Part shown: one piece after another, positions 15,018 through 53,021 of the stretch
Layout of the letters: each line of letters opens with the position of its first letter
Position numbering within the stretch: the stretch's first letter is position 1
Assembly: GCF_963675065.2 (NCBI RefSeq)
Contig: NZ_CAXXLR010000001.1
Coordinates: 56,550-120,549, forward strand
Origin: an uncultured Draconibacterium sp.
GTDB taxonomy: Bacteria > Bacteroidota > Bacteroidia > Bacteroidales > Prolixibacteraceae
Reading direction: 5' to 3'
DNA: 64,000 bases
Made by a program: the position numbers and the translations under genes
Notes under the pieces: generated by a model
Told to the model about the DNA's origin: nothing
The model's database searches: none
Seen by the model: the letters and a program-made list of their open reading frames with translations, nothing else

Positions 15018-15470
15018 ATGAAAATGCAAAATATAAACCGACCGATAAAAAGTATCTTTTTGGTAGTTTTTGCGGTTATGATGATAGTTCCACTCACATC
15101 GTGTGCAAAAAAGTTCACTTTTTTAAGTTCAACTGTTGTACCGGGAGCTGATGGATATGTTAAGGTAAAAAAGGATAAGAATAAGAATTATATTGTAAAA
15201 ATAGAAGTGTCGGATTTAGCTGAAGTAGAAAGGGTTCAACCAACAAAAACAACTTATGTTGTTTGGATGGAAACCGATGAGGGTAATGCCGAAAATCTTG
15301 GACAATTAAAAAGCTCCACAAGTTTTTTATCAAAACGCCATACTGCGTCTTTGGAAACGGCATCTTCTTTTAAGCCGGTAAAAGTATTTATTACAACCGA
15401 AAATGGAACAAACGTGCAATATCCGGGCCGGCAGGTGGTACTTACCACAGAAGATTTTACTGTGAAATAG
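15018..15470 (+). CDS. Hypothetical lipoprotein
   Basis: Signal peptide with lipobox LTSC. Confidence 0.75.
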   Translation: MKMQNINRPIKSIFLVVFAVMMIVPLTSCAKKFTFLSSTVVPGADGYVKVKKDKNKNYIVKIEVSDLAEVERVQPTKTTYVVWMETDEGNAENLGQLKSSTSFLSKRHTASLETASSFKPVKVFITTENGTNVQYPGRQVVLTTEDFTVK

Positions 15471-15504
15471 ATATTTATGCCTTCGACAAACAATTAAACA
15501 ATTC

Positions 15505-15531
15505 AAAAGGCAGCCACATGGTTGCCTTTTT
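15505..15531 (+). terminator. Intrinsic terminator
   Basis: aaaaggcagcc-acat-ggttgcctttt followed by T. Confidence 0.75.
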
Positions 15532-15551
15532 GCATTTTGCAATTCAGCTAA

Positions 15552-15590
15552 AATGTGAGAATGATGTAACTCAAATCGAAAATTGTGTAA
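15552..15590 (+). promoter_or_regulatory. Repeat box #3
   Basis: AATGTGAGAA TGATGTAA N13 TTGTGTAA; GATCTTTG at 15613. Confidence 0.85.
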
Positions 15591-15657
15591 AACATTTTAT
15601 TGGGTAGAACCTGATCTTTGGGAAGTAGAATTTAGTAGCAATTTTAAATGAATTATT

Positions 15658-15836
15658 ATGTTTAACTATTCTTGTTGTTGTTGGAGTTGTTGGAGTTATC
15701 CTATGACTCATAAACAACTACATTCCGATGCAACGCACTATTAAAAATATTCTTAATGCCGTGGTTGTAATTATTCTGGTAATATGGTTGCTGAAAGAAT
15801 TTGGTGTGCTGGATAGTTTGAAGAATATCCGAATTC
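15658..15836 (+). pseudogene. Decayed copy of the Thivi_2564-family small membrane protein gene
   Basis: Nearly colinear with 21562-21747 (NNYIPMQRTIKNILNAVVVIILVIWLLK) but with a 5' frameshift and a TGG>TGA stop. Confidence 0.8.
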
Positions 15837-16044
15837 AATTTCAGTATCTTAGGCTGTAAACTACTGCTGATAGATAATTGAAATATTCAGACAATTTTTC
15901 ATGAGATATCGATATCCGTTGGATTTAAAAGATTGGGGTTTGTAAAGTGGTTGGATGATGAGCCCATCTTCAGTTTTGTGTAATACTATCTCAAATAAAA
16001 ATCCAACCATTATATGAGGAAATTTAATCACAAAAATTATTACA

Positions 16045-16263
16045 ATGAAAAAAACTTTGGGAATTATACTAATTGTAATTGGACTATTAATGATGGTGTA
16101 TACCGGATTTAACTACATCACAAAAGAGAAGGTGGTGGATTTGGGTCCCATTGAAATTAATGCCGAAGAAAGCCATACCGTTAAATGGCCGCCTATTGTT
16201 GGAGTTATTTTTATTGTTGGAGGCATCGTTGTAATTGCACTCGATAAAAAGGCTCGAATTTAG
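16045..16263 (+). CDS. Small 2-TM membrane protein (DUF3185-like)
   Basis: Two TM helices around EKVVDLGPIEI. Confidence 0.7.
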   Translation: MKKTLGIILIVIGLLMMVYTGFNYITKEKVVDLGPIEINAEESHTVKWPPIVGVIFIVGGIVVIALDKKARI

Positions 16264-16288
16264 TGCCGTGTAATAATTGAAGTTTCTA

Positions 16289-16346
16289 AATGTGTGAAGA
16301 ATGTAATTTATTATTCAGTATTAGTAGTAGTATTAGTAGTAGTAGT
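16289..16346 (+). promoter_or_regulatory. Repeat box #4, second half replaced by a (TAG)n microsatellite
   Basis: AATGTGTGAA GAATGTAA ... agtattagtagtagtattagtagtagtagta. Confidence 0.65.
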
Positions 16347-16416
16347 ACACAGCAATTAAAGTATAAAATTGTTACAATCTTGTACCTATGATTTAGGTAT
16401 AATAAAGTTAAAAATA

Positions 16417-16602
16417 ATGAGTATCATAGAATTAGAAGGAAGCTGGGAAGAAAAGAAGGGTAAACTCAAACAGAGATTTGAAGTATTAACACACGATGAC
16501 CTTATGTTTGCTGGAGGAAATATTGAAGTACTGTATGATAAACTTCAAATAAAGCTAGGCTTAACAAAAGCAGAATTTCAAGAAATTATTGAATCACTAT
16601 AA
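16417..16602 (+). CDS. csbD: CsbD-family general stress protein
   Basis: EGSWEEKKGKLKQRFEVLTHDDL; probable ATG at 16417. Confidence 0.8.
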   Translation: MSIIELEGSWEEKKGKLKQRFEVLTHDDLMFAGGNIEVLYDKLQIKLGLTKAEFQEIIESL

Positions 16603-16631: not shown

Positions 16632-16967
16632 ATGAAAAAGGCAATTTTTTTTGTAATCGTAATGATTTTGGCAATGAGTTCGGCTATGGCATTTGCAAGT
16701 CCCAAGGATGTAAAAACAGATGCTGAAAAGTCTGCTGTTCCTGTAAAAACCGAAAACAAATTGTCGGAAGCGGAAATTACCCGTTTGACAAAACGTGTTG
16801 AAGAAATCCGGGATTTGGATAAATCAGAAATGAATACCAAAGAACGGAAAGAACTGAGAAAAGAACTGAAAGAGATTAAGAAGAATGTTAAGAATAGCGG
16901 AGGAACCGTTGTTATTAGTGGTGCTGCCCTCGTTTTAATTATTATTCTGATTATCCTTTTGGTTTGA
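16632..16967 (+). CDS. Hypothetical exported helical protein with C-terminal TM anchor
   Basis: Signal peptide, coiled coil (KRVEEIRDLDKS...RKELKEIKK), hydrophobic C-terminus. Confidence 0.75.
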   Translation: MKKAIFFVIVMILAMSSAMAFASPKDVKTDAEKSAVPVKTENKLSEAEITRLTKRVEEIRDLDKSEMNTKERKELRKELKEIKKNVKNSGGTVVISGAALVLIIILIILLV

Positions 16968-17179: not shown

Positions 17180-18325
17180 ATGAAAACTCTTTCAAAAATA
17201 CTTGCTGTACTGCTTTTAATAAACATTTATGCTCTGTTTTCAGCTCAATCGTTATCAGCACAGCAAGGACCGGAATTTGTCAGTTTCCGGGTTTTTTATG
17301 ATGAATTAAGTCCTTATGGATTTTGGGTCAACTATCCGAATTACAATTACGTTTGGATTCCCAATGTAGATGCCCATTTTACTCCTTACTCAACTGCCGG
17401 ACAATGGGTAATGACAGAATATGGCTGGACCTGGGTGTCGAGTTATTCCTGGGGCTGGGCGGCATTTCATTACGGACGTTGGGATTACGATGATTATTAT
17501 GGATGGTTTTGGATTCCTGACAATGAATGGGGGCCATCGTGGGTTGTCTGGAGAAAAGCCCATGGCTATTATGGGTGGGCGCCTCTGAGGCCGGGAATGA
17601 ACAGCAACATGAATTTCGGTAGCAAATACGATGATAATATCCATTGGAATTTTGTACAATACAGCGATTTTGGGAAATCAAATATTGGAACTTATGTTGT
17701 TGACAATTCCACCTATAACAATTTAATAAGAAGCTCTTCCGTAATAAACAATACATACAACGATAACAGACGCAACGTAAGTTATATTTCAGGCCCTTCA
17801 TTACGACAGGTTCAACGGACATCGGGCAGGGAAATGGGGAGGGTTGCAATAACGGATTACAACAGGCCCGGACAAGTATTTGAAAACAATCGATTGCAAT
17901 TATACAGACCATTGATAGAAAAAAACACGGGCATGAACAAAAGGTTGGAGCCATCGAAAATAACAGACCTCCTGTATGTAAAATCACCACAAGAGCGAGT
18001 TGATTTTTATCAACGTGGGGCAATAACGCCCAAAGATGAATTGAGAAATAAAAAACAAATCAGGCCATTGGAGGCCGAAAGAATAAACCAACAGCATCAG
18101 AATCAATTCCTGTATATAACACGACTAAACAAATACAAAATTCGACGGATTAGATCCATTCAGGAGATTGAGTTCCGATCGCAGGAAAAACAACTACTTC
18201 AACCGATGAACCTCCACAATAAGAATAATGTTGCCCCGCCAGTCAATGCGCAAAAAAGATCGAAAACAACAGGAGAAAGAAGACAACAGGAGCCCGACAA
18301 ACAAAGAGAAAGACGTAACAAATAG
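17180..18325 (+). CDS. DUF6600-like Trp/Tyr-rich exported protein
   Basis: FYDELSPYGFW, WGWAAFHYGRW, WGPSWVVW, GWAPL; low-complexity C-terminus. Confidence 0.75.
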   Translation: MKTLSKILAVLLLINIYALFSAQSLSAQQGPEFVSFRVFYDELSPYGFWVNYPNYNYVWIPNVDAHFTPYSTAGQWVMTEYGWTWVSSYSWGWAAFHYGRWDYDDYYGWFWIPDNEWGPSWVVWRKAHGYYGWAPLRPGMNSNMNFGSKYDDNIHWNFVQYSDFGKSNIGTYVVDNSTYNNLIRSSSVINNTYNDNRRNVSYISGPSLRQVQRTSGREMGRVAITDYNRPGQVFENNRLQLYRPLIEKNTGMNKRLEPSKITDLLYVKSPQERVDFYQRGAITPKDELRNKKQIRPLEAERINQQHQNQFLYITRLNKYKIRRIRSIQEIEFRSQEKQLLQPMNLHNKNNVAPPVNAQKRSKTTGERRQQEPDKQRERRNK

Positions 18326-18378: not shown

Positions 18379-21300
18379 TTGGAATGTAGTATACAGATCT
18401 TAAACTGGCTTTCATTGAAATGGAATACAATCAATTATTCATGCCGAAAGAATGATAAAAAATTACCCTGGTTCGTTCAAAAACTTCGCGTTATACTGGT
18501 CTGTCTGTTTTTTCTCGCATCTTACTCCAATACTTTATCCCAGGAATATTTCCAGCAAGAAGTCAACTACAAAATTCAGGTTTCGTTAAACGATAAGCTT
18601 CATAAATTAAGTGCATTAGAAACCCTTGAATACATCAACCACTCACCGGACACGCTTCATCTATTATATTTCCATTTATGGCCCAATGCCTATTCAAACA
18701 ACACGACTCCTTTAGCCCGTCAAATGTTTCAGTTTTATGGAAAAGAGAAGTTGTTCAATAATCCTGAATTAAGAGGAGCTATTGATTCGCTTGATTTTGC
18801 AGTAAATGGAAGCAAGGTTAATTGGGAATTATTATCCGGCCAGCCCGACATTTGCCGGATATATCTGGAGGTTCCCTTAAATCCGGGCGACAGCCTGCTT
18901 ATTACCACCCCTTTCCGGGTAAAAATCCCCAAAGGAGTAACTTCCAGACTGGGTCACATCGGCGAATCTTATCAAATTTCACAATGGTATCCCAAGCCGG
19001 CAGTTTATGATAAAAATGGATGGCATCCAATGTCGTATCTTGATCAAGGAGAATTCTATTCTGAATTTGGCCGTTTTGAGGTGTATATAACTTTGCCCGC
19101 TAATTACATTGTAGGAACATCGGGAAACCTACAAAACTACAGCGAAATTGAAATGCTGGATAAACTTGCAGCCGACACTGCCTGGATAAAAACCGCCAGT
19201 TTAACAGATACTGATTTTCCGGCTTCATCAAAACAGGTTAAAACACTCCATTACACTGCCGATAAAATTCATGATTTTGCATGGTTTGCGGATAAACGGT
19301 TCCATGTGCAGAGAGGAAAGGTGAAACTTCCAAACTCCGACAGAGAAGTAACGACCATGGTTTTGTTTACAAATGAGCAATCTGAACTTTGGAAAGATGC
19401 CTTACAATATGTAGATGAAGCAATTTATTGGTTTTCGGATAAAATTGGCGATTATCCCTATCAAAGTTTTACGGCAGTTCAAAGCGCGCTCACTTCGGGC
19501 GACGGAATGGAATATCCGGGACTTACCGTGGTCGGACTGGCAGACAATGCCTATGCGCTCGACGAAGTTCTTTCTCACGAAATTTGCCACAACTGGTTTT
19601 ACAGTGCGCTGGGGTCGAATGAGCGTAGATACCCATTTATGGATGAAAGCATTACCAGCGCCTACACCGACCGGTATTTGGCGGAAAAATATCCGGAGAA
19701 AAAGCTTTGGGAGGTGTACCTGAAAAACAGAAAGTTGGCAAAATTTGTACATGTCGACAAATTGCCAATCCAGCGATTAAAGGAAATGGAATGGCTTTTC
19801 CAGGCACGTAACAACCGGGAACAACCGATAAACATTCCTGCAACAGAATATACCGATTTAAATTACGTATTGATGCTTTACAACAAAGCCGCAATTTCTT
19901 TTAATTATCTGCGGATTTATCTTGGTGATGCTGTTTTTGATTCGGCAATGCAGGAATATTTTCGCCAATGGAGGTTCAAACATCCACAACCCGAAGACCT
20001 ACGCGAAATTATTGAAACACATTCAGAAAAGGATTTAAGCTGGTTTTTTACCGATTTACTGGGCACTACCAAACGAATCGACTATAAAATGGTTCGCACA
20101 AGTAATCAGCAGGTGCTTATTAAAAACAAAGGAGAATTGGTTTCGCCGCTTTTCATTTCGGGTACAACCGGAGATTCAATTTTCTTTGAAAAATGGGAAG
20201 ATGGTTTTAAAGGCAAAAAATGGATCGATCTTCCATCGGGTGATTATACAGAACTAATTATCGATCCCGGACATACAACACCTGAGATCTTCAGAATCAA
20301 CAATAATATCAAAACAAGCGGTACTTTTCCAAAGGCTGATCCTATTCGAACTCAGCTCCTCTTTTCAATGGATGACACGGAAGCACACACAATTATGTAT
20401 ATGCCTGCAATTAACTGGACCAGAGAAAACAGTTTTATGCTGGGCATGGCAATTCATAACGGCTTTATTATTCCCAAACCAATCGAATATTTTGTGATGC
20501 CATTTTATGCATTCGGAAATTCGGATTTGGCCGGATTTGGTCGAATAAATTACAACATTACCCCTTATGATAAATTAATCCGTTTGGCAACTATCTCGCT
20601 TGAAGGAACACAATTTGGTGCACCGGGCAATTACAATTATCACAGGATTAAAACAGGACTGGAACTTCATTTTCGAAATAAAAAAATGACTCACCCTTTC
20701 CAACAGAGCATATTGGGAAATTACATTGCCGCATCCAATCTTTCTCATATTAATCATCAGGAGAAGGCAAAATTGAATTCATATATCCAAATTGGTTACC
20801 TGCTTGAAAAGACCGGTTTTGTTAATCCATATACTTTGCTGACATCTTTCGAATCCGGAAAAACGTACAAAAAAACATCGCTGGAGTTAAATTACAAATT
20901 AAGTTACTTAGGAAAAAAGGATGGACTGGAGATGCGTTTTTTTGCCGGGGCGATGCTAAAAAACGATGCCAATAATCCATTCTACGCATTTTCAGCAAGC
21001 GGAAGAAACGGAAGGGAACAATATCTTTACGAAGGAAACTACCCGGACCGTTTCAGTGTATTTCCCGAGAACTTTTTCTCCCGGCAAATGACACTTACTG
21101 AAGGAGGCCTTGTTTCTCCTTTGAACAATAGCCTGGGATATAGCCGGTGGCTTATTTCGTTTTCGCTTACAAGCAATTTGCCCGGCAAAGCTGCCAAATT
21201 CCCGGTAAAACCATTTCTTAATTTATTAATGAATGACCATGGCATTTCAGCCAGCCAAAATTCGCTGATCTTTTACGAAGCCGGCTTGAAAACCGGATTT

Positions 21301-21438
21301 TGGAATTTTTTTGAAATCTATATTCCCTTACTTGTTTCCAAAAATATTGATTCAGTCGATAGCACTTTCAAAAACAGGATCCGATTTGTTTTCTCAATCG
21401 ATTCAATCAGCAGGTTCAGATTAAATGGCAATATATAG
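18379..21438 (+). CDS. M1 family metallopeptidase with C-terminal extension; start uncertain
   Basis: GMEYP and HEICH zinc motifs; the signal peptide before QEYFQQ suggests a later start. Confidence 0.85.
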   Translation: MECSIQILNWLSLKWNTINYSCRKNDKKLPWFVQKLRVILVCLFFLASYSNTLSQEYFQQEVNYKIQVSLNDKLHKLSALETLEYINHSPDTLHLLYFHLWPNAYSNNTTPLARQMFQFYGKEKLFNNPELRGAIDSLDFAVNGSKVNWELLSGQPDICRIYLEVPLNPGDSLLITTPFRVKIPKGVTSRLGHIGESYQISQWYPKPAVYDKNGWHPMSYLDQGEFYSEFGRFEVYITLPANYIVGTSGNLQNYSEIEMLDKLAADTAWIKTASLTDTDFPASSKQVKTLHYTADKIHDFAWFADKRFHVQRGKVKLPNSDREVTTMVLFTNEQSELWKDALQYVDEAIYWFSDKIGDYPYQSFTAVQSALTSGDGMEYPGLTVVGLADNAYALDEVLSHEICHNWFYSALGSNERRYPFMDESITSAYTDRYLAEKYPEKKLWEVYLKNRKLAKFVHVDKLPIQRLKEMEWLFQARNNREQPINIPATEYTDLNYVLMLYNKAAISFNYLRIYLGDAVFDSAMQEYFRQWRFKHPQPEDLREIIETHSEKDLSWFFTDLLGTTKRIDYKMVRTSNQQVLIKNKGELVSPLFISGTTGDSIFFEKWEDGFKGKKWIDLPSGDYTELIIDPGHTTPEIFRINNNIKTSGTFPKADPIRTQLLFSMDDTEAHTIMYMPAINWTRENSFMLGMAIHNGFIIPKPIEYFVMPFYAFGNSDLAGFGRINYNITPYDKLIRLATISLEGTQFGAPGNYNYHRIKTGLELHFRNKKMTHPFQQSILGNYIAASNLSHINHQEKAKLNSYIQIGYLLEKTGFVNPYTLLTSFESGKTYKKTSLELNYKLSYLGKKDGLEMRFFAGAMLKNDANNPFYAFSASGRNGREQYLYEGNYPDRFSVFPENFFSRQMTLTEGGLVSPLNNSLGYSRWLISFSLTSNLPGKAAKFPVKPFLNLLMNDHGISASQNSLIFYEAGLKTGFWNFFEIYIPLLVSKNIDSVDSTFKNRIRFVFSIDSISRFRLNGNI

Positions 21439-21455
21439 CTGTTTGTCGTTTCCCA

Positions 21456-21494
21456 AATGTGTGAATGATGTAACTCTTTCACGAAATAATGTAA
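21456..21494 (+). promoter_or_regulatory. Repeat box #5
   Basis: AATGTGTGAA TGATGTAA N13 TAATGTAA; GACCTTTG at 21517. Confidence 0.85.
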
Positions 21495-21561
21495 TAAATT
21501 CTATGGCAGGTTGGCAGACCTTTGCAAGGAAGGATTTAGTAACAAATTAAAATTTAAAAAT

Positions 21562-21747
21562 ATGCCTATTTTAACGATCATTATTGTGATTTTGGTTGTA
21601 GGAGTTATTCTCTGGTTGGTAAATAACTACATTCCTATGCAACGCACCATTAAAAATATTCTTAATGCGGTGGTTGTAATTATTCTTGTGATTTGGCTGC
21701 TGAAGGCATTTGGTGTTTTGGACAGCTTACAAAACATAAAAATTTAG
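21562..21747 (+). CDS. Thivi_2564-family small membrane protein
   Basis: MPILTIIIVILVVGVILWLVNNYIPMQRTIKNILNAVVVI. Confidence 0.8.
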   Translation: MPILTIIIVILVVGVILWLVNNYIPMQRTIKNILNAVVVIILVIWLLKAFGVLDSLQNIKI

Positions 21748-21805
21748 GATTAGTTTTATCTGCGATCATTTCTGTCTTCTTTTTGAATTGGATAAAATTG
21801 GGTCA

Positions 21806-21844
21806 AATGTGAGAATATTGTAATTCTTATTCAAAATTATGTAA
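21806..21844 (+). promoter_or_regulatory. Repeat box #6
   Basis: AATGTGAGAA TATTGTAA N13 TTATGTAA; CACCTTTG at 21867. Confidence 0.8.
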
Positions 21845-21933
21845 TATTCTCCGAACCCAAAGTTTTCACCTTTGCTCAGTGAAAATATTTTCACGACTGT
21901 GCCGCCAGACGCGGTAAAAATATTCAGAATAAA

Positions 21934-22755
21934 ATGATAAAAAAAAATAAAGTATTCAATGCCTTAGCGATGGTTTTGGTGGCCATATTACCGGTACTAA
22001 ACAGCGGTTGTAAAAATGAAGACACACCGCCCCTGGAAACAAGTTTTAATCTGAAAGTACAAGATGTTCTTGGAGTTACGGGTACTGCAACTTTTATTGA
22101 AACAAGCGCTACCGTGTCGACAATAACGTTAAAACTGTATGGCGCTCCTTCAGGAACTCATCCGGCTGCCTTGTACATGAATTCAGTTGTCGAGGGTGGC
22201 GAAATTGTTCAGGAGCTCAATCCTGTAGATGCTTCAGGCACCAGTTCTACCGATGTAAATTTATTAACTTACAATCAGCTGATAGCTTATGACGGCTTTA
22301 TAAAAGTGATTAAGAGCAGCAACGAACCTAACATCATTTTAGTACAGGGCGACATTGGCGGAAATGTACTGACAGGGGACAAAACGACTTTTGTTTTGGA
22401 TACAATTGGCGCATTTGGCGTTTCGGGAACTGCACTTTTCGAAAAAAGGGAAAACGGGAATACTCTGGTAACCCTTTCGCTAACCGGTGCAATTGCAGAA
22501 GAAATGTATCCGGCAACCATTAACTTGAGTTCTGTGGCCACAATTGGAGGCGGACCTGTAACAAAAACATTAAACAATGTTAATGGGACTACCGGGAAAA
22601 GCTTTACCAACATCCGAAAACTGGACGAAGGCCTGAAAATAACCTATGATAATTGGCTGGTTTATAATGGCTATATTAATATTTATCAGACAGCGGTTGA
22701 TTTTAACAATATTATTAGCCATGGAAATATAGGGTCGAACGTAAACAGCAATTGA
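21934..22755 (+). CDS. Lipoprotein with two CHRD-like repeats
   Basis: Lipobox NSGC; two internal repeats (GTATF..HPAALY..GG..Y..L..YDG / GTALF..YPATIN..GG..Y..L.YNG). Confidence 0.65.
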   Translation: MIKKNKVFNALAMVLVAILPVLNSGCKNEDTPPLETSFNLKVQDVLGVTGTATFIETSATVSTITLKLYGAPSGTHPAALYMNSVVEGGEIVQELNPVDASGTSSTDVNLLTYNQLIAYDGFIKVIKSSNEPNIILVQGDIGGNVLTGDKTTFVLDTIGAFGVSGTALFEKRENGNTLVTLSLTGAIAEEMYPATINLSSVATIGGGPVTKTLNNVNGTTGKSFTNIRKLDEGLKITYDNWLVYNGYINIYQTAVDFNNIISHGNIGSNVNSN

Positions 22756-24518: not shown

Positions 24519-24530
24519 CCTGGTCGTAAA

Positions 24531-24569
24531 AATGTGAGAATAATGTAACTAAATCCTAAAGTTGTGTAA
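24531..24569 (+). promoter_or_regulatory. Repeat box #7
   Basis: AATGTGAGAA TAATGTAA N13 TTGTGTAA; canonical TACCTTTG at 24592. Confidence 0.85.
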
Positions 24570-24639
24570 CAATTTCAGAGCGAATGAGAAATACCTTTGA
24601 TAGTGCATTAATTTATATGCACAGTTAATACTGAAAATT

Positions 24640-26505: not shown

Positions 26506-26580
26506 TGGGACTGATATTTCTGTACAAAATTCCATTCAATCAAAACCACTTCCGGCAGGCAAAAAAGGCAAACTATTTCA

Positions 26581-41671: not shown

Positions 41672-41681
41672 ATTATACACA

Positions 41682-43869: not shown

Positions 43870-43903
43870 TATCGGCCCATTTTTTAATATAAAACAAATA
43901 ACC

Positions 43904-44662: not shown

Positions 44663-44667
44663 ATTTT

Positions 44668-45357
44668 GTGGAAAGTGAAAATCATTTTGTAAAAAGAAGC
44701 GGATGGCTGAGAGCCTCTGTATTAGGTGCCAATGATGGGATTCTTTCCACCACCAGTTTAGCCATTGGTGTTAGTGCCGCAAGTGTAGCGAGAGCCCCAA
44801 TCATACTGGCAACTCTGGCAGGTCTGGTTGCAGGAGCACTGTCAATGGCTGCCGGAGAATATGTTTCTGTAAGTTCGCAATTGGATGTTGAAACAGCTGA
44901 TTTAAAAAGGGAAAAAAATGAACTTGCCAATACGCCGGAAATTGAATTGGATGAACTTTCTAAAATTTACGAAAAAAGAGGCCTGACCAGCGATTTGGCC
45001 ATAGAAGTTGCAATCCAACTAACTGCTCATAATGCCTTGGAAGCACACGCACGTGATGAATTGGGCCTTAATGAAATATCCAGGGCAAAACCTTTGCAGG
45101 CTGCCTTTGCGTCTGCATTTTCGTTTCTAGTGGGCGGAATATTTCCACTCTTGATTTCAATTTTTGCTCCCTTAAGTCAAATGATATACTTCCAATATGG
45201 TTTCTCAATTTTATTTCTTGCTTTATCCGGAACTATTGCAGCAAAGGTTGGGGGTTCGGTAATTAGCAAATCGGTATTGAGAATTTGTATATGGGGTACC
45301 ATTGCAATGGTAATGTCAGCATTAATTGGATACCTGTTTGGAGTTGGGATAAATTAG
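44668..45357 (+). CDS. VIT1/CCC1 family Fe/Mn transporter
   Basis: WLRASVLGANDG, SMAAGEYVSV. Confidence 0.9.
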   Translation: MESENHFVKRSGWLRASVLGANDGILSTTSLAIGVSAASVARAPIILATLAGLVAGALSMAAGEYVSVSSQLDVETADLKREKNELANTPEIELDELSKIYEKRGLTSDLAIEVAIQLTAHNALEAHARDELGLNEISRAKPLQAAFASAFSFLVGGIFPLLISIFAPLSQMIYFQYGFSILFLALSGTIAAKVGGSVISKSVLRICIWGTIAMVMSALIGYLFGVGIN

Positions 45358-45386
45358 GTTTTTGATAATAATTATCTGAGGAACAA

Positions 45387-46274
45387 ATGAATTTCATCGA
45401 TTATTACAAAATATTAGGGATAGACAAAAAAGCCACTGCAAGTGACATCAAAAAGGCCTATCGTAAACAAGCCCGAAAATATCACCCCGATTTGAATCCC
45501 AAAGATGCAGATGCCAAAAAGAACTTTCAGCAAATTAATGAAGCCAATGCTGTACTTAGCGACCCCGAAAAACGAAAGAAATACGACAAATATGGGAAAG
45601 ACTGGCAACATGCCGATCATTTTGAAAATACAAAACAGTATCAGGAACAAAGTTCAGGTTTTAGCGGGCGGGAATATTCGCAGGCTCATTCTGGCCGTGA
45701 TTTTTCCGATTTTTTCGAATCTATGTTTGGTGGTTCAACAAATACAGGAAGAAGCAGGCAGGTAAAATTCAGAGGCGAGGATTATTATGCGAAGTTTCAG
45801 CTTAAACTTACAGATGCTTATAAGCCCCACCAACAAACCCTTTCGGTAAATGGTAAGAATATAAGAATAACCATCCCCGCCGGAATTGAAAACGGACAAA
45901 CCATTAAGATTTCAGCACATGGGGGGACGGGAATAAATGGCGGGCCAAACGGCGATTTGTATATTACATTTTCAATAGCTATTCATCCGGGCATTAAAAG
46001 ACTGGGAAATGATTTATATACGCATGTTGATTTAGAATTATACACAGCGGTATTGGGTGGCGAAATAACCATCGATACCTTGAGCGGAAAAGTGAAATTA
46101 AAAGTAAAGGCCGAAACGCAAAATGGAAGCAAGGTAAAACTCAAAGGGAAAGGATTTCCTGTCTATAAAAAGGAGGGGCAGTTCGGAGATTTATACATAA
46201 CCTATGTGATTAAAATCCCAACTCATTTAACCGAAAAGCAAAAAGGCTTATTTGCCGAGCTATCAAAATCTTAA
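45387..46274 (+). CDS. cbpA: DnaJ-class chaperone (CbpA-like)
   Basis: J domain with HPD, DnaJ_C, no zinc finger. Confidence 0.88.
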   Translation: MNFIDYYKILGIDKKATASDIKKAYRKQARKYHPDLNPKDADAKKNFQQINEANAVLSDPEKRKKYDKYGKDWQHADHFENTKQYQEQSSGFSGREYSQAHSGRDFSDFFESMFGGSTNTGRSRQVKFRGEDYYAKFQLKLTDAYKPHQQTLSVNGKNIRITIPAGIENGQTIKISAHGGTGINGGPNGDLYITFSIAIHPGIKRLGNDLYTHVDLELYTAVLGGEITIDTLSGKVKLKVKAETQNGSKVKLKGKGFPVYKKEGQFGDLYITYVIKIPTHLTEKQKGLFAELSKS

Positions 46275-46284
46275 TCTTTTAATC

Positions 46285-46587
46285 ATGAAGGAAACACAAC
46301 CAGATGATTTAATAGCGGTAAATGAATTCTGTGCCAATCACAACATCGGAATTACTTTTATAGACCATTTGCAGCAAAGCGGGTTAATTGAAATCTATAT
46401 TATAGAATCAAAGAACTTTGTTGAAAAGGAGCAGCTTCCTCAGCTTGAAAAATTTGTTCGTTTCTATTACGATCTGGATATTAACTTCGAAGGAATTGAG
46501 ACCATAAACTATTTATTGCAACGAATGGAAAACCTACAAAATGAGATAGTTGCGCTTAAAAACAGGCTTCGGCTTTATGAAGGATAG
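46285..46587 (+). CDS. cbpM: Chaperone modulator CbpM (MerR-like)
   Basis: Follows cbpA; YDLDINFEGI..LL..ME.LQ; probable ATG at 46285. Confidence 0.8.
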   Translation: MKETQPDDLIAVNEFCANHNIGITFIDHLQQSGLIEIYIIESKNFVEKEQLPQLEKFVRFYYDLDINFEGIETINYLLQRMENLQNEIVALKNRLRLYEG

Positions 46588-46615
46588 TAGTTAAATAAAT
46601 TAACAAGACAAGATC

Positions 46616-47794
46616 ATGCAACCCAATAACGGAAAAGAGATTGAACAAGCAAAGAAAGCAGCACTGGAAGTACTTCTTCACAACGCTCACGGGCCGTTTC
46701 ACGGATTACCCCGAACAGCAGGTTGGGGGTATCCGGAACCTTATACACGGGATCTGATGATTTCCATTCTGGGGATAGCTGTTTCCGGAAATAAAAAGTT
46801 GCTCGACAGCATTCGGAAAGTATTGGAAACACTTGCAAAAAACCAAACCGAACGTGGCCATATTCCATCGCTGGTGCACGACAACGATGATCGTGGTGCC
46901 AGTGATACCACTCCTCTGTTTTTACTGGCAACCGGTATATTCAGAAAAGTTACAGGTGAAGCGGACTTTCTTGCTGAAGCAGTTAAAAAATCATTGGTGT
47001 GGATGAGTTTTCAAAGCCCTGCCGACAAGTTATTAATAGCTCAACTACCTACCAGCGACTGGCGCGACGAGCAATGGGTACTTGGATATGGTATTTATGT
47101 AAATACGCTGGTATATAGTTATCTGAAAATTCTTGACAAACATGAATTGGCAGATAATATGCAACGAGCTATGAGCCGTTTTACCGTAACCGGCGGAATT
47201 CTGCACCGCCATGTGCACGAAGGAATGGTGGTAAAACACAAACCTTATTATGCCTTTTGGTCGTACAAAATTTTTAGCAGCGAGCGTTTCGATCTACTTG
47301 GAAACAGTCTGGCCATTCTTTCCGGAATTGCATCACCTTCACGAGCCAATGAAATGATTTACTGGATTGAAGATGAATGCAATGCGATGCGGAAAAGCGG
47401 TGAATTAACTGGAGACTTGCCACCCAATTTTTTCCCTTTTACAAAACCGGAAGATCCCGACTGGCACGAGCGATATTCGACATACAACAAACCGGGAGAC
47501 TACCACAACGGCGGAATTTGGCCATTTATATGCGGATTTTATATTGCAGCCTTAGTTGCTGCCAAACGATATAAACTTGCTGAAGAAAAACTGGTAGCGT
47601 TTACTCAATGTGTTAAACTCACCCGAACTGAAAACCTTGAGTTTGGATTTAACGAATGGATAAAAGCACAGGATGGCAAGCCAATGGGACAGGACTGGCA
47701 GACATGGAGTGCAGCAATGTATCTGTATGCAGCAAAATGTGTCGAACAAAAGAGTACGCCCTTTTTTGACGAGATAAGACATAAAATTATTTAA
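46616..47794 (+). CDS. (alpha/alpha)6 glycosidase, GH100 invertase/amylo-alpha-1,6-glucosidase-like
   Basis: YTRD, YHNGGIWP, FNEW...QTWSAA. Confidence 0.75.
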   Translation: MQPNNGKEIEQAKKAALEVLLHNAHGPFHGLPRTAGWGYPEPYTRDLMISILGIAVSGNKKLLDSIRKVLETLAKNQTERGHIPSLVHDNDDRGASDTTPLFLLATGIFRKVTGEADFLAEAVKKSLVWMSFQSPADKLLIAQLPTSDWRDEQWVLGYGIYVNTLVYSYLKILDKHELADNMQRAMSRFTVTGGILHRHVHEGMVVKHKPYYAFWSYKIFSSERFDLLGNSLAILSGIASPSRANEMIYWIEDECNAMRKSGELTGDLPPNFFPFTKPEDPDWHERYSTYNKPGDYHNGGIWPFICGFYIAALVAAKRYKLAEEKLVAFTQCVKLTRTENLEFGFNEWIKAQDGKPMGQDWQTWSAAMYLYAAKCVEQKSTPFFDEIRHKII

Positions 47795-47813
47795 CAAATT
47801 AAATTTCATTACA

Positions 47814-48005
47814 ATGAACAAAGGAACAGTAAAATTTTACAATGAAACCAAAGGATTTGGGTTTATAAAAGATGCCGAATCATCGAAAGAATATTATGTA
47901 CATTCAACCGGAGTAACGGATAATATCGGGGAAAATGATGAAGTAACGTTTGATTTGGAAGAAGGAAAAAAAGGATTAAATGCAGTAAATGTTAAACTGG
48001 CTTAG
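47814..48005 (+). CDS. Cold-shock protein
   Basis: GTVKFYN..KGFGFI, YYVH. Confidence 0.92.
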   Translation: MNKGTVKFYNETKGFGFIKDAESSKEYYVHSTGVTDNIGENDEVTFDLEEGKKGLNAVNVKLA

Positions 48006-48035: not shown

Positions 48036-48060
48036 ATCCCGCTAATAGCGGGATTTTTTT
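48036..48060. terminator. Intrinsic terminator between convergent genes
   Basis: atcccgct-aat-agcgggat followed by a T tract. Confidence 0.7.
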
Positions 48061-50307
48061 TTATACCAATTTTAAATCCGACCGGTGAAACTCTTCGTAG
48101 GCCTGCAGTACGGTTAAATGAGAAATTAGATACGCAAGCGAACTTTCTGCTCCCTGATTCCGGTTAACACCATAGCTTTCGAAACCATCGCAACAACCTT
48201 TGGTTTCGAAATCGTACAAACTCATCCGCAAATCATTTTCACCCAGAAACCACAAAAAGGAGGTGTACAGTTTGTTGAGATAATCCTTATCCTTTGTCAG
48301 GTAAAATGCCTGATGATACATTAAAACCGTGGCCATTGCATCAATAGGTTGCTGGGCAAAAACAGAACGTTCTCCTTCCTTTTTATACCATTTTTCATTG
48401 CCAATAACCGAAAGGTATTCATCTTTTAACGTATGTTTTGTTAAAAAATTCATCGAATCAATGGCTGTTTTTGTAATGTTCTGGTCGTTCAAAATTTCGG
48501 CAGAATGTAAAAGAGCCAAGGGTAAAATTCCATTATCGTAAGCCAGCAATGCTTCAAACCAATTCCAGTCTTCTGAACGATTTTCGTCGTAATGTTTCAT
48601 CAATACATTCGCCAGATTTCTTAATCTTTCGGTCATTGAATCGTCAGATGGATTACTCTTCAGATAATAGCTAATACCAATCATTGTATTGGCAATTCCC
48701 CGAATTGATTTTAGTTTTTCAAAATTAGGAGCAGCCGTGAAAAACACCAGTCTGCCGGTTTGATAATAAGCATCGTTTGGTGCATTCGCCAATAAATAAC
48801 CCAGGGCCCAAATTGTTCTTCCAAACGAATCTTCAGAGCCCACTTCATCCAGGAAATTTCGGTTAAAACTCAGGAAATTCCGAAAGGTCCCGTCAGCGTT
48901 TTGCATATAATGAATGTAACTTAAGTAAACAGGCGATAATTCAAGTGCACGCATATCTTTTTTCTGACGGTAAGCTTTTAAAACCATTAGCAAGGCGCGC
49001 GAATTATCATCAAGGCAATACCCTTCCTTTAAATTTGGTATGCCAAATTTTGCATGTTGAATAATACCTGTATCGTCTGTTAATCGATTTATATGAGCCA
49101 GGGAAAAGGGAGGAAGAATGAGTAAATCTGGTTCAGGTTCTTTTCGCTTAAGAACCGGTTGCTCATCCTTCATTATTTTTTCAGCAAGTTGCATGTATCT
49201 TTCGCCCGTTTTTGGCCAGGTAATTTTTTTGCCATATTCATCGGCATTTTGTTTCAGTTTCCTGAGCTCTTCTGGGTTATCAAAAAGATCAATTAGAGTT
49301 TCAGCCAAATCATCCGAGTCATTAAACCTGAACAACCGGCCTCTTCCTTTGTCCAGCAATTCAGCAGCATGCCAGTATGGTGTTGAGAGAACAGCCGCAC
49401 CAGTACCTACTGCATACGAAAGGGTTCCGCTGGTAATCTGGGCTTCGTTTAAATAAGGAGTGATGTAAATATCGCAGGCATACAAATATTTGAATAAGTC
49501 CTGTTCGTCAATAAATTCATTGAGAAATGTCACATGATTTTCGAGTTGGAGACTTTTTACCAGACGTAAAAGAAAAATCCGGTATTCTTCGCCTGAATGA
49601 CGAAGCACATTCGGATGGGTTTTACCCAAAACAATGTAAATAAGCTCCGGATATTTTTTTACTACTTCCGGCAAAGCTTTAATTACTGTTTCAATACCTT
49701 TGCTTCGGCCAATAAAGCCAAAAGTAAGCAGCACTTTCTTTTTCTCAAGTTTAAACTCCTTTTTCGATTTTTCGGGACTGAAACGAATGTCCGGCACACC
49801 ATGTTCAATCAATGCGATTTTTTCTTTGGGTACATCATAAATTGTTGTCAGAAACTCAATCGCCTTATGGCTCATCACCACAATTTTATGTGCCATTTTA
49901 CAGATTTCCTTCAGTACTGCTTTCTCGTTGTAAGAAGGCGTTTTAAGAATGGTATGAAGCGTAACAATGAGCGGAATTTCAAGCCGGTGAAGCAAGGGAA
50001 GGATATATACCCCACTTTGTCCGCCAAATATGCCAAATTCGTGCTGGAGAACACAAACATCGGCGCCGCTTAAATTAATGTATTTCACGGCTTTCAAATA
50101 ATCTTCCTGATGATCTTGCCTGATGGTAACTTTTACTTCTTCAGGATATTTATAGGTGAGCTCGTTATCGTTTAATGCAACCACAAAACCTTCATTTGTT
50201 AGTTCATTTGGCTCATTTTGTCGTAACATCGATTTGAACAGGTTGTTCGTGAAGGTTCCAATACCACATTCGCGTGGTGGATATGTTGCAATATAAGTGA
50301 TCTTCAT
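48061..50307 (-). CDS. GT4 glycosyltransferase fused to a C-terminal (alpha/alpha)6 domain
   Basis: YPPRECGIGTF, QHEFGIFGG, QITSGTL..STPYW; C-terminal DDTGIIQH, YCLDDN.RAL, NQGAES. Confidence 0.85.
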   Translation of the reverse strand: MKITYIATYPPRECGIGTFTNNLFKSMLRQNEPNELTNEGFVVALNDNELTYKYPEEVKVTIRQDHQEDYLKAVKYINLSGADVCVLQHEFGIFGGQSGVYILPLLHRLEIPLIVTLHTILKTPSYNEKAVLKEICKMAHKIVVMSHKAIEFLTTIYDVPKEKIALIEHGVPDIRFSPEKSKKEFKLEKKKVLLTFGFIGRSKGIETVIKALPEVVKKYPELIYIVLGKTHPNVLRHSGEEYRIFLLRLVKSLQLENHVTFLNEFIDEQDLFKYLYACDIYITPYLNEAQITSGTLSYAVGTGAAVLSTPYWHAAELLDKGRGRLFRFNDSDDLAETLIDLFDNPEELRKLKQNADEYGKKITWPKTGERYMQLAEKIMKDEQPVLKRKEPEPDLLILPPFSLAHINRLTDDTGIIQHAKFGIPNLKEGYCLDDNSRALLMVLKAYRQKKDMRALELSPVYLSYIHYMQNADGTFRNFLSFNRNFLDEVGSEDSFGRTIWALGYLLANAPNDAYYQTGRLVFFTAAPNFEKLKSIRGIANTMIGISYYLKSNPSDDSMTERLRNLANVLMKHYDENRSEDWNWFEALLAYDNGILPLALLHSAEILNDQNITKTAIDSMNFLTKHTLKDEYLSVIGNEKWYKKEGERSVFAQQPIDAMATVLMYHQAFYLTKDKDYLNKLYTSFLWFLGENDLRMSLYDFETKGCCDGFESYGVNRNQGAESSLAYLISHLTVLQAYEEFHRSDLKLV

Positions 50308-50519: not shown

Positions 50520-50552
50520 GGTTCACCTCTTCCGTTTTCTGTTTTGTTCTAC

Positions 50553-50822
50553 TTAAATATCTACCGGCATTGAAATGGTAATTGGCCTTAATACGGTATG
50601 TTTTTTTTGCATTTCAGCATTTGCCGGATCGTCAATGATTGACTGTAATTTTTCCATGTCCGTAACTTCAATTACCAATGCAATCGAATTGGGATCATTA
50701 GCATCTCTAAACGTTTTGAAACTGGTTATTGCGGGTGCAAAAACCCTTTTCCTGTCATCATGTCCTTTAAGCCATGTGTCAAAATCTCCTACCTTATGTC
50801 GTGCTACAATTGTTGTCATCAT
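50553..50822 (-). CDS. Small dimeric alpha/beta-barrel (ABM-like) protein
   Basis: VARHKVGDFDTW..FRD.NDPN. Confidence 0.65.
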   Translation of the reverse strand: MMTTIVARHKVGDFDTWLKGHDDRKRVFAPAITSFKTFRDANDPNSIALVIEVTDMEKLQSIIDDPANAEMQKKHTVLRPITISMPVDI

Positions 50823-50938
50823 TTTGTTCTTTTAAGATGCTTATGCCTACTCTATTCGGTTTTCGGCTAACTCGATTTAAAGCTCTTCTTTCAACTATTT
50901 TATGCGATAGATGAATACTACTCTGACTAAGTTAGGCC

Positions 50939-51052
50939 TTAATCGCTTTTCCTGGCTTTTTTGGCTGCTTTAGCTGCCCGTTTTTCTTTCAAGCTCATAA
51001 CGGCTTCCTTCTTCTCGTTCTTCCGTTCTTTTCCTTCCTTACTTTTTGCCAT
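50939..51052 (-). CDS. 37-aa Lys-rich small protein
   Basis: MAKSKEGKERKNEKKEAVMSLKEKRAAKAAKKARKSD*; not in the ORF track. Confidence 0.75.
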   Translation of the reverse strand: MAKSKEGKERKNEKKEAVMSLKEKRAAKAAKKARKSD

Positions 51053-51076
51053 GATATTTATTATTAGATATTTAAA

Positions 51077-51427
51077 CTATAATATATTTCCTTCGTACCC
51101 ACTTTTAATCACTGTTGAAATCATCTTGAATCGACCATTCGCCTTAACTGTATTGGAACTATGAGCCGGAATAATTATGCCTTGTCCCGTTTGAATTATG
51201 GTTGACTGATCATCAATCACTACTTCGGCTGTACCTTCAATTATCTGTATAAAGGTGTCAAACGGAGATATCTTCTCGGCCAGAGCCTCGCCGGTATCAA
51301 TGGCCATAACAACTATGTTTCCGGTTGTTTTCCGGATAATTGTTTTACTTACCACCGAATTGGGAACATACTGAATGATTTCGATGAGGATGCGAATTTT
51401 CGATTTTTCTAATTCCTTCATTTGCAT
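51077..51427 (-). CDS. Cupin-domain protein
   Basis: SPFDTFIQIIEG.AE...IIIPAH. Confidence 0.8.
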   Translation of the reverse strand: MQMKELEKSKIRILIEIIQYVPNSVVSKTIIRKTTGNIVVMAIDTGEALAEKISPFDTFIQIIEGTAEVVIDDQSTIIQTGQGIIIPAHSSNTVKANGRFKMISTVIKSGYEGNIL

Positions 51428-51482
51428 GAGTCTTCAAATAAGATAATCTCCTCAAAGTTACATCCGCTCAATTTTGAAAGTG

Positions 51483-51521
51483 TTACACAATCGATGTTAT
51501 AATTTACATCATTCACACATT
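51483..51521 (-). promoter_or_regulatory. Repeat box #15
   Basis: Reverse complement AATGTGTGAA TGATGTAA N13 TTGTGTAA; AAACTTTG at 51460-51453. Confidence 0.88.
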
Positions 51522-51524
51522 TTG

Positions 51525-53021
51525 CTACTTGATGCCAATTTGGCGCAACCCGTAAACGGTTCTGAAATGATACCCATAAACAGTGTATGTAAGGGCGTCA
51601 ACCATTAATTTTGGCTTATTGAAAAGGGTCCAGATGACAAATTTCCAATATTCAGTTCTCCCCTTGTCGAGGAAACCAATTACATAAACCGATTTTAAAA
51701 ATGCGAACAGCAGCGAAAATTTTATTTTGGATTTTCCTTTTGTCAAACGATTGTAGTTAAGTAATAACCGCCTGACCCTTTTGTAATAGGGTTTTACCGA
51801 GTAAATATTTTTGATTATTCTTTTATAACCTTCCTGAAGCTCGTTGGAATCCATTTTAGGAATAAAGTTCATTGATGAATCGGTATTATTTCCTGTAGCT
51901 TCCACGGTTAACCGGTTTTCTGCATTTAACTGATTGTAAAGTTTGGTGTTTTTGGGCGCGTTTAATAATCCAACCATAGCCGAAACAATTCCACTTTGTT
52001 GAATGAAATCGATTTGACGTTGAAAAACTGACGGCGTGTCGCTGTCGAAACCAACAATAAAACCACCTGACACCTGAATTCCAGCTTGTTGTATCGTTTT
52101 AACGCTTTGAATAAGATCCCTGTTTTTATTCTGAACTTTATTGCACGATTGAAGAGATACTTCATCGGGAGTTTCAATGCCAATAAAAGCAGCATTAAAA
52201 CCTGCATCAATTAACTGCGACATGAGCTCTTTATCATCGGCCAGATTTATCGAACTCTGGATACTAAAATTAAAAGGGTACTTATGGCTTTGCATCCATT
52301 TTTTCATTGCCGGAAGCAAACTCTTTTTTATTTCTTTGATGTTTCCAATAAAATTATCATCGACAATTGAAACCGGCCCACGCCATTTAATGGTATCGTA
52401 CAAAACATCCAGTTCGTTAATAATTTGGGGGGTGCTTTTCATCCTCATTTTATGCCCCAGCAATGACGTAATTTCACAAAAGCTACAGTTATATGGACAT
52501 CCACGTGTTACCTGGATATTCATGTTAGCATAGTCTTTTGCTGATAGCAAATGAAAATCGGGAGCTGGTGTTTGGGTTAAATCTGCATATTTATCTGTAG
52601 CATAAACCCGTTGGAGTTGTCCGGTATTGATATCGGCCAGAAAAAGGGGCATGGTGATTTCTGCCTCATTCAAAATAAAGTGATCTACATCCGGATAATT
52701 GGGATATTCCTGGGTAAAAAGCGGACCACCTGCAACTATTTTTTTGCCCCATTTTTTGCTTTCCGCAATTACCTTGGTTACCGATTCCTTTTGAATATAC
52801 ATGGCGCTGATAAAAACATAATCAGCCCACTGAATATCGCTTGTCTGAAGCGGTGAGATATTTAAATCCACCAGTTTTTTTTGCCATGTTTCAGGCAGCA
52901 TTGCCGACACCGTAATTAAACCAAGTGGCGGAACTGCAGCTTTTTTCGAAATAAATTTCAGGGCATGGGTAAAACTCCAGAACGAATCCGGACACTTTGG
53001 ATAAACCAATAATACTTTCAT
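51525..53021 (-). CDS. B12-binding radical SAM protein (DUF4070, HpnP-like architecture)
   Basis: PPLGLITV, AGGP, RGCPYNCSFC (CxxxCxxC), IGIET, GGFIVGFD. Confidence 0.88.
   Translation of the reverse strand: MKVLLVYPKCPDSFWSFTHALKFISKKAAVPPLGLITVSAMLPETWQKKLVDLNISPLQTSDIQWADYVFISAMYIQKESVTKVIAESKKWGKKIVAGGPLFTQEYPNYPDVDHFILNEAEITMPLFLADINTGQLQRVYATDKYADLTQTPAPDFHLLSAKDYANMNIQVTRGCPYNCSFCEITSLLGHKMRMKSTPQIINELDVLYDTIKWRGPVSIVDDNFIGNIKEIKKSLLPAMKKWMQSHKYPFNFSIQSSINLADDKELMSQLIDAGFNAAFIGIETPDEVSLQSCNKVQNKNRDLIQSVKTIQQAGIQVSGGFIVGFDSDTPSVFQRQIDFIQQSGIVSAMVGLLNAPKNTKLYNQLNAENRLTVEATGNNTDSSMNFIPKMDSNELQEGYKRIIKNIYSVKPYYKRVRRLLLNYNRLTKGKSKIKFSLLFAFLKSVYVIGFLDKGRTEYWKFVIWTLFNKPKLMVDALTYTVYGYHFRTVYGLRQIGIK

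Follow-up and report, generated by a model that had tools for sequence, protein, structure and literature searches.

A 44-nt box and two putative AraC regulators outline a candidate protective regulon in Draconibacterium and its relatives

Box promoters and AraC regulators

The window analysed here is a stretch of 64,000 nt from an uncultured Draconibacterium sp. of the Bacteroidota (contig NZ_CAXXLR010000001.1, positions 56,550 to 120,549), in which a conserved 44-nt box precedes a series of genes including CsbD- and YtxH-like ones, and which encodes two AraC-family regulators. An original prediction, made from the letters alone, had read these genes as a general-stress and desiccation regulon in which an AraC activator working with the housekeeping sigma factor does the job of sigmaB/RpoS. 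A 46-nt position weight matrix (PWM) was derived from the motif copies returned by a repeat search of the window (about 45 nt; 11-13 direct and 3 inverted). The box has the consensus AAATGTGTGAATGATGTAAC-N11-AATTGTGTAACA and includes two half-sites of the TGTAAC type, arranged as a direct repeat about 21 bp apart. The box is real and well above chance: fourteen full copies scored 36-53 bits, whereas 20 shuffled versions of the window reached at most 13.9 bits. All 14 boxes lie within a 39-kb cluster (14.9-53.2 kb) and none in the flanking 26 kb, 11 of them on the + strand and three, with starts at 32161, 51522 and 53174, on the - strand. The distal half occurs on its own at two extra sites, 6530 and 16288.

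A start codon follows 93-153 nt downstream of the box start for each of the 14 boxes, and over window and related boxes together this distance clusters at 90-130 nt. In 13 of the 14, a -7-like element, nAnnTTTG, begins exactly 63 nt from the box start. The same offset was found at related genome loci (69 of about 95 boxes with a good -7-like match, 81 when +62 is counted as well) and in an independent metagenome sample (132 of 192 boxes), where the median count at other offsets was 0. The -7 consensus of flavobacterial sigmaA, TAnnTTTG, spans -12 to -5 (PMC9723704). With the element in this position, the predicted transcription start is about 75 nt beyond the first base of the box, which would put the proximal half-site at about -43 to -32, the usual place of the -33 element; the -33 TTTG is absent from the box promoters at the position of this half-site. 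Neither an extracytoplasmic function (ECF)-type motif (CGT, -35/-10) nor a sigma54-type motif is conserved in the box promoters of the window and the comparative sets, which, along with the sigmaA-type -7 at its fixed offset, bears out the housekeeping-type sigma that had been proposed. A scan for E. coli-type -35/-10 pairs showed no enrichment of promoter-like sites (74 vs 63; 61 vs 58), as expected for Bacteroidota. The layout suggests an activator-dependent, class-II-like promoter, and the best model is that of an AraC activator at sigmaA-type promoters devoid of a -33 element, where activation is probable.

The same geometry bears on the idea that the box does not activate and is instead an operator for a repressor, or a dispersed repeat. 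As its proximal half-site overlaps with the -33 position, it could occlude the polymerase, but the whole box is upstream of the -7 element, its promoters are without the -33 TTTG, and AraC/XylS proteins are mainly activators. Moreover, box orientation and spacing are fixed relative to the -7 element and the gene starts and are kept before orthologues across orders, which does not fit a mobile repeat. We consider this explanation very unlikely.

Two AraC regulators with an HMA-like N-terminal domain are encoded in the window, AraC1 (29885-30442, + strand) and AraC2 (53165-53725, - strand), which are 51% identical. AraC1 belongs to a box-driven operon, behind a CsbD-like gene, and this position predicts positive feedback or autoregulation, while AraC2, which has no box upstream, may be the entry point. 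Both carry the two-helix-turn-helix domain of the AraC/XylS family (PF12833, E=5.5e-19 for AraC1 and 6.8e-16 for AraC2), and profile matches of this DNA-binding domain in the PDB were AraC, XylR, SoxS, Rob and MarA. An AlphaFold2 model (pLDDT 86.6) joins a canonical AraC DNA-binding domain to an N-terminal domain of beta-alpha-beta-beta-alpha-beta order (strands at residues 2-6, 29-32, 35-38 and 60-62, helices at 11-23 and 44-56), that is, the ferredoxin-like fold of the HMA type. In Foldseek searches the DNA-binding domain matched AdpA best and also MarA, SoxS and Rob (TMt 0.65-0.8 for AdpA and MarA), and the N-terminal domain matched TM0320, GolB and a CopZ-type protein with TMt of about 0.65 and probability 0.99, but with E of about 0.25. 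The HMA profile PF00403 reached E=4e-5 and 24.3 bits (cut-off 24.8) for a homologue with an intact CxxC and E=0.13 for AraC1, and did not match AraC2. Hidden Markov model (HMM) searches, model and structural matches thus agree with the AraC-family regulator with an HMA-like N-terminal domain of the original prediction. In the second recognition helix, SSVAHLSNQF, the residues S152, S153, H156, L157, S158, Q160 and F161 do not vary within the family, which parallels the conserved TGTAAC core of the box.

The M-x-C-x-x-C loop of the N-terminal domain is intact in AraC2 (MVCIRC), and AraC1 has lost the first cysteine (MESSRC); across loci, 51 members carry a single Cys vs 7 with CxxC. One Cys, the second, and one Arg are invariant family-wide, and these residues (or the CxxC) of a degenerate metal-binding loop may serve as the sensor. 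The HMA fold, the M-x-C-x-x-C of AraC2 and a subset of relatives, and the invariant Cys and Arg would also suit a metal or redox sensor whose regulon is a metal or thiol stress response, as would a VIT1 gene inside the cluster and FeoAB adjoining it. However, most members have lost the first Cys, VIT1 is box-linked nowhere else among 82 AraC-centred genome loci, and the frequent cargo families hold no metal efflux ATPase, RND, chaperone or thiol-peroxidase genes, which makes this alternative unlikely.

The best named relatives of AraC1 are from Maribellus (81%), Lentimicrobium, Mariniphaga and Prolixibacter. The family comprises at least 8000 database clusters at E<=1e-3, and a genome scan confirmed at least 578 loci, with members in Bacteroidales/Marinilabiliales, Chitinophagales, Cytophagales, Flavobacteriales, Sphingobacteriales, Balneolales and metagenome-assembled genomes labelled Ignavibacteria. 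Box and regulator were found together from either side. From the protein side, 40 of the 82 AraC-centred loci carry one or more boxes within 10 kb; from the DNA side, a member of the AraC family is encoded on 28 of 120 metagenome contigs that had been selected by their box (562 kb in total). Two independent censuses, one of AraC-centred genome loci (n=100) and one of box-selected metagenome contigs (n=150), covered the first genes downstream of 250 boxes, and AraC itself was the first gene in 13 and 2 cases, respectively. Furthermore, variant boxes of the same architecture (TGTGAT-N-ATGTAAC-N13-TGTAAC-N24-ACCTTTG) adjoin AraC at loci of Cytophagales and Flavobacteriales that had no match to the matrix (22 vs 5.7 expected). 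Overall, Bacteroidales, Chitinophagales, Cytophagales and Flavobacteriales share the promoter architecture. Within the cluster, no other DNA-binding regulator is encoded except a CbpM-like MerR_2 protein. On these sequence grounds the region is, with good confidence, an AraC-box regulon. Full-text literature searches found no publication on the regulator, the box or the regulon.

Units along the cluster and their gene families

The strongest intergenic terminators, which alone were used, bound units at 15505, 25581/25622, 29320, 30450 and 48036. Box control would be direct only where a gene opens its unit or closely follows the opening gene, and we infer that it extends to the distal genes of long operons; what had been said of genes behind boxes holds directly for the former. 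Pfam and NCBIfam scans of about 75 open reading frames (ORFs) essentially upheld the original cargo list, save that the second of its Thivi_2564 genes is a pseudogene. Not on that list, though also box-driven, were the genes of a hybrid histidine kinase, a CheB-CheR-PAS fusion and its PAS partner, a PAS kinase, a B12-radical SAM enzyme, a DUF6600 protein, an M1 peptidase and four lipoproteins.

The leftmost box (14888-14931, 49 bits; this and all boxes below are on the + strand unless stated) precedes the gene of a 150-aa lipoprotein (15018-15470), with a terminator at 15505-15530. The second (15551-15594, 47.5 bits) precedes a degraded Thivi_2564 copy (about 15653-15859), and a 72-aa membrane protein (16045-16263) may belong to the same unit. 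The segment 15551-15870 is a duplicate, 84% identical, of the box-plus-Thivi_2564 unit at 21455-21747, in which the promoter is intact, but the gene has lost 5 nt behind the ATG and is interrupted by an in-frame TGA. Further downstream lies a split box (16288-16375), made up of the distal half (16288-16307), an (AGT)10 microsatellite (16317-16347) and the proximal-like AAAATTGTTACA. It is followed by a CsbD-like gene (16417-16602), a 111-aa protein (16632-16967), the DUF6600 protein (17180-18325) and the M1 peptidase (18379-21438), and may act as a switch of variable length or be no more than a dead promoter.

The box at 21455-21498 (49.3 bits) precedes the single intact Thivi_2564-family membrane protein (21562-21747; NF041949, E=7e-21), the one at 21805-21848 a 273-aa lipoprotein (21934-22755) and the hybrid PAS-HisKA-HATPase-REC kinase (22818-24518), and the one at 24530-24573 a 153-aa coiled-coil lipoprotein (24640-25101) and a 55-aa ORF, with terminators at 25581 and 25622. 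An M48 peptidase gene (25702) comes after these terminators and has no box. The box at 26580-26623 (52.9 bits) heads an operon that is found again in relatives and consists of YtxH (26690-27004; E=1e-21), a 93-aa cupin-like protein (27108-27389), a holin-X-like protein (27419-27772; Phage_holin_3_6, E=1.7e-7) and its 126-aa partner (27779-28159), to which no family could be assigned. Within the YtxH gene, two copies of a 33-nt repeat (26883-26948) encode an 11-residue repeat (KEDVTEYAEKI/KEDVSDFAEKK), which is reminiscent of the 11-mer repeats of group 3 late embryogenesis abundant (LEA) proteins.

The promoter at 28373-28416 and its OmpA-family lipoprotein gene (28473-29291; terminator at 29320) are also present in Maribellus. 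Behind the box at 29527-29570 are a CsbD-like gene (29635-29817) and AraC1, closed by a terminator at 30450; the order csbD-araC or box-araC is conserved in relatives. A box on the - strand (32118-32161, 36.5 bits) precedes a 55-aa Lys-rich protein (31881-32048), an OmpA protein with a glycine zipper (31149-31847) and an outer-membrane protein (OMP) beta-barrel (30503-31120), a unit of which the pair also adjoins AraC in Prolixibacter. The unit of the box at 32323-32366 is conserved in Maribellus and comprises a 56-aa membrane protein (32416-32586), the CheB-CheR-PAS fusion (32771-35677) and the PAS protein (35682-36230). It is followed by a GH130 gene (36367-37839) that has its own promoter region and no box and is annotated as beta-mannoside phosphorylase-like. 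A GH130 paralogue is found at 2282, outside the cluster, and the two segments (2227-3751 and 36311-37839) are 74% identical over the first 300 nt of coding sequence and 82% over the upstream promoter region. The box at 37859-37902 precedes a PAS-PAS histidine kinase (37987-39546).

The longest unit, behind the box at 39682-39725, is a run of 13 genes (39796-48005, 8.3 kb) that is apparently terminator-free up to the strong terminator at 48036-48054. It encodes an lmo0937/DUF5670-like protein (39796), an OMP barrel (39983), a CsbD-like protein (40486), SPFH (40811), a 134-aa protein, PIG-L, GT4, SDR, VIT1 (44668), CbpA-like (45387) and CbpM-like (46285) proteins, a GH100/GDE_C-like enzyme and Csp (47814), and the order box-small gene-SPFH-PIG-L-GT4-GH100 is conserved in Prolixibacter and Maribellus. 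VIT1, CbpA/CbpM, GH100 and Csp lie 5-8 kb downstream of the box and would be under its control if the run is read through. The lmo0937-like gene gave no direct HMM match and resembles 9-10 box-driven small genes elsewhere; in a separate count, DUF5670 was matched by 10 box-driven first genes in the metagenome. The CbpA-like protein combines DnaJ and DnaJ_C in 295 aa, has no zinc finger and scored 178 bits with the curved-DNA-binding-protein model, below the equivalog cut-off; the next gene encodes the CbpM-like protein (PF13591 MerR_2, E=3.7e-23), which together make up a CbpA/CbpM pair. The glycan enzymes of the cluster are PIG-L, GT4, the GH100/GDE_C-like enzyme, a GT4-GH fusion and GH130. 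A role of the PIG-L and GT4 pair in bacillithiol or mycothiol synthesis was considered and rejected, as the NCBIfam models BshB2, BshA and MshA scored far below threshold.

The three CsbD-like genes of the original prediction stand as CsbD-like at low HMM scores: the one at 16417 matched PF05532 with E=4.5e-5 and 23.7 bits (gathering cut-off 40) and the YjbJ model with 1e-6, the one at 29635 matched the YjbJ model with 5e-4 and had no Pfam match, and the one at 40486, also without a Pfam match, was recognised by eye only. Box-driven CsbD relatives elsewhere reach E=2.5e-15 for the CsbD model.

Two boxes on the - strand complete the cluster. That at 51479-51522 (37.6 bits) precedes a 116-aa cupin (51077-51427), 89-aa and 71-aa proteins and the GT4-GH fusion (48061-50307). 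That at 53131-53174 (42.4 bits) overlaps the last codons of AraC2 and precedes the B12-binding radical SAM protein (51525-53021). A cupin of about 116 aa with the ending ...ISTVIKSGYE is often encoded directly upstream of AraC, for example at loci L021, L027, L051 and L063, and could be a partner or co-sensor of the regulator instead of mere cargo.

Cargo across Bacteroidota and the nature of the programme

Cargo was sampled from 20-kb neighbourhoods and short contigs. The top families of both censuses were CsbD (8 of 100 first genes at AraC-centred loci and 15 of 150 on metagenome contigs), DUF5670 (4 and 10), OmpA (5 and 9), YtxH (3 and 6), ice-binding-like proteins (Ice_binding, 6 and 6), MlaE (1 and 5) and cupins (Cupin_2, outside the top 25 and 4). 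Lower counts were obtained for glycine-zipper proteins (1 and 4) and DUF6600 (1 and 3); YceI and PAP2, each with 3 in the metagenome, were outside the top 25 at the AraC-centred loci, and YunG (2) and YflT (1) of those loci were outside the top 25 in the metagenome. About half of the first genes behind boxes resemble a cargo protein of the window by phmmer. Near AraC, at the 82 loci, the recurring families were cupins (30), CsbD (23-25), YtxH (16), the coiled-coil lipoprotein (16), OmpA types (10-12) and the holin-X pair (8-9), and the infrequent ones CbpA (2), SPFH (2) and VIT1 (0), with SDR and GH100 rare. The co-occurrence of the cargo families with the box and the HMA-AraC, which had been named as a check of the original prediction, was positive across Bacteroidota. 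The sampled regulon is weighted to outer-membrane proteins, lipoproteins, small membrane proteins and hydrophilins.

The SigB core set includes CsbD, YtxG/H/J and YflT (PMC7824861), as had been claimed for CsbD and YtxH, and csbD is EcfG-dependent in Sphingopyxis, within the general-stress regulon (PMC7083833). On this basis, the family-level analogy to stress regulons is sound. The conserved cargo points to a protective programme of envelope and cytoplasm under water-related stress or growth arrest. In the most likely mechanism, the direct repeat would be occupied by two regulator protomers, and these would bring in the primary-type RNA polymerase holoenzyme as in class-II-like activation. 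The cargo expressed in this way would include the small hydrophilic CsbD and YtxH, the small membrane proteins of DUF5670/lmo0937-like, Thivi_2564 and holin-X-like type, OmpA-like proteins, beta-barrels, lipoproteins, cupins and PAS kinases, to which relatives would add Mla, ice-binding-like proteins, YceI, Usp and sigma factors. In function, such a programme may correspond to a part of the sigmaB/RpoS regulons, with a transcription activator in control. We therefore regard as the best explanation overall an AraC-run regulon of at least 14 activator-dependent promoters that probably serves a protective programme, with a probability of roughly 0.6. A role in stress or growth arrest is plausible by analogy and somewhat favoured, and equivalence to the sigmaB/RpoS general stress response is doubtful; the label "general stress/desiccation" is drawn from family analogy only, and its "general" is an extrapolation.

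Several observations weigh against this explanation. The three sequencing runs that hold this DNA are genomic, as judged by their flat assembler depth, and no RNA run was found. The box was assigned as the AraC site by co-localisation and architecture only, and half of the AraC loci have no box by the Bacteroidales-trained matrix. The window cargo includes no catalase, Dps or trehalose synthesis genes, nor were these found behind boxes in the sampled DNA. VIT1, CbpA/M, SDR, GH100 and Csp are rarely or never box-linked elsewhere and may therefore be local passengers. Finally, the base at -12 is C and not the consensus T in 101 of the 192 metagenome promoters (consensus CACCTTTG), from which it follows that a sigmaA paralogue, such as that in the Maribellus cargo, could be the cognate sigma in some species.

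This last point leads to the alternative that box promoters are read by a sigmaA paralogue, or that a sigma is needed along with AraC, in a sigma cascade. Besides the deviation of CACCTTTG at -12, it is supported by sigma genes among the box cargo of relatives: they make up 4 of the 100 first genes at AraC-centred loci (Sigma70_r2) and are of ECF type apart from one full-length sigmaA paralogue in Maribellus. This paralogue and an ECF sigma of Maribellus each lie behind a box, beside AraC (L001/L002, 7020-7877 and 9173-9691). The paralogue is 62% identical to the sigmaA of the window and is a candidate for a stress-induced primary-like sigma in Bacteroidota. However, these sigma genes, where present, are cargo downstream of a box, which implies that sigma factors can be outputs of the system; sigma is not among the 25 commonest families of the metagenome census, the rest of the -7 fits sigmaA, no ECF-like -35/-10 motif is conserved, and there is no sigma gene inside this cluster. 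The sole sigma gene of the window (59060-59926, - strand), which encodes a full-length protein of 288 aa with sigma-70 regions 1.2, 2, 3 and 4, lies outside the cluster among core genes, has no box and is presumed to be the housekeeping sigmaA. Thus, the absence of an alternative sigma stated in the original prediction applies to this cluster and does not extend to relatives, and a sigma cascade appears quite unlikely.

A further alternative is that the regulon is real and narrower, devoted to envelope or water stress (osmotic, freezing, drying, outer-membrane damage) or to growth arrest and dormancy, and not an equivalent of sigmaB/RpoS. The cargo is dominated by OMPs, lipoproteins, small membrane proteins, Mla, PAP2, YceI, ice-binding-like proteins and hydrophilins, and it has no oxidative-stress, DNA-repair or proteostasis core apart from the local CbpA/CbpM and Csp, which are rarely box-linked elsewhere. 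Nevertheless, the box cargo of the sampled DNA includes CsbD, YtxH, YflT and Usp, which are classic multi-stress markers, and the cargo from which a narrower scope is read is that of 20-kb neighbourhoods and short contigs rather than of whole genomes. Such a restriction is possible, on the less probable side.

The protective AraC-run regulon can be compared with known systems. Like MarA, SoxS and Rob, the regulators have a two-helix-turn-helix AraC/XylS domain and are predicted to be autoregulated, and many dispersed stress promoters would be activated with the primary sigma from sites that abut or overlap the -35 position. The marbox is a single degenerate 20-bp site that occurs at class I or II positions, whereas the box of this cluster is a tandem direct repeat of 44 nt whose position is fixed; the cargo is composed of hydrophilins and envelope proteins instead of efflux and redox enzymes, and the N-terminal HMA-like domain and the Bacteroidota-type -7/-33 promoters are further differences. 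With SigB of Firmicutes and RpoS of Enterobacteria the cluster and its relatives share CsbD/YjbJ, YtxH, YflT, SDRs, glycosyltransferases, CbpA/CbpM, OmpA-like proteins and osmotically inducible lipoprotein types, YjbJ/CsbD and CbpA/CbpM being members of the RpoS regulon. In contrast to those systems, whose master is an alternative sigma with its own promoter consensus, the putative master here is an activator, no partner-switching module was seen, and catalase, Dps and trehalose genes are not part of the cargo. The GadX/GadW and AdpA systems resemble this one as AraC-family regulators of adaptive programmes of multiple operons, and the DNA-binding domain of AdpA is the best structural match, but their sensor or dimerisation domains, sites, cargo and phyla are different. 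EcfG/PhyR of Alphaproteobacteria is likewise a lineage-specific solution to general stress that includes csbD (PMC7083833); it consists of an ECF sigma, an anti-sigma and the anti-anti-sigma PhyR, none of which is present here.

The putative AraC-family stress regulon, with its unusual sensor domain, site geometry and cargo, recurs across the phylum. These results define a candidate regulon: its site is known to the base over 44 nt, its promoter geometry is fixed, its regulators belong to a very large family that is apparently uncharacterised and occurs in more than 578 species genomes, and the same core cargo is found repeatedly, namely CsbD, YtxH, DUF5670, OmpA-like and further small proteins without known function. 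To our knowledge, Bacteroidota lack a general stress regulator of the RpoS, SigB or EcfG type, and the coordination of their survival functions is poorly understood. Tentatively, the HMA-like AraC and the TGTAAC box might be the master switch, missing so far, by which Bacteroidota and neighbouring lineages control a response to general stress or dormancy; if so, a class-II-type activator of sigmaA promoters would fill the role that alternative sigmas have in Firmicutes, Proteobacteria and Alphaproteobacteria. If confirmed, the regulon would open the stress physiology of a phylum of ecological and medical importance to study by a reporter and a genetic handle, and would place many small "hypothetical" proteins in context.

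Cluster edges and surroundings

On the left, the cluster is bordered by an integrase fragment (13159-13527, - strand) of which only the Arm DNA-binding domain is left, and on the right by tRNA-Arg(ACG) (54295-54371, - strand). A mobile or integrative island was considered and rejected, as no att-like repeat of the tRNA-Arg end was found and the gene order is conserved in Maribellus and Prolixibacter; integrase fragment and tRNA look like a decayed remnant, not an active island. An Rfam scan of the window returned tRNA only, and the ORF-free region 13528-15017 holds no known RNA family. Outside the cluster, the lone distal half-box at 6530-6549 is a perfect AAATGTGTGAATGATGTAAC that lacks the proximal half and sits 300 nt upstream of a 3-hydroxyisobutyrate-dehydrogenase-like gene. 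Within 14048-14407, the assembler depth of short segments in the three genomic runs is 10-35 times that of the single-copy DNA on either side, which indicates a multi-copy repeat, such as a miniature inverted-repeat transposable element or the end of an insertion sequence, and a purine-rich AAAAGAAGAG tract is located at 14344-14378.

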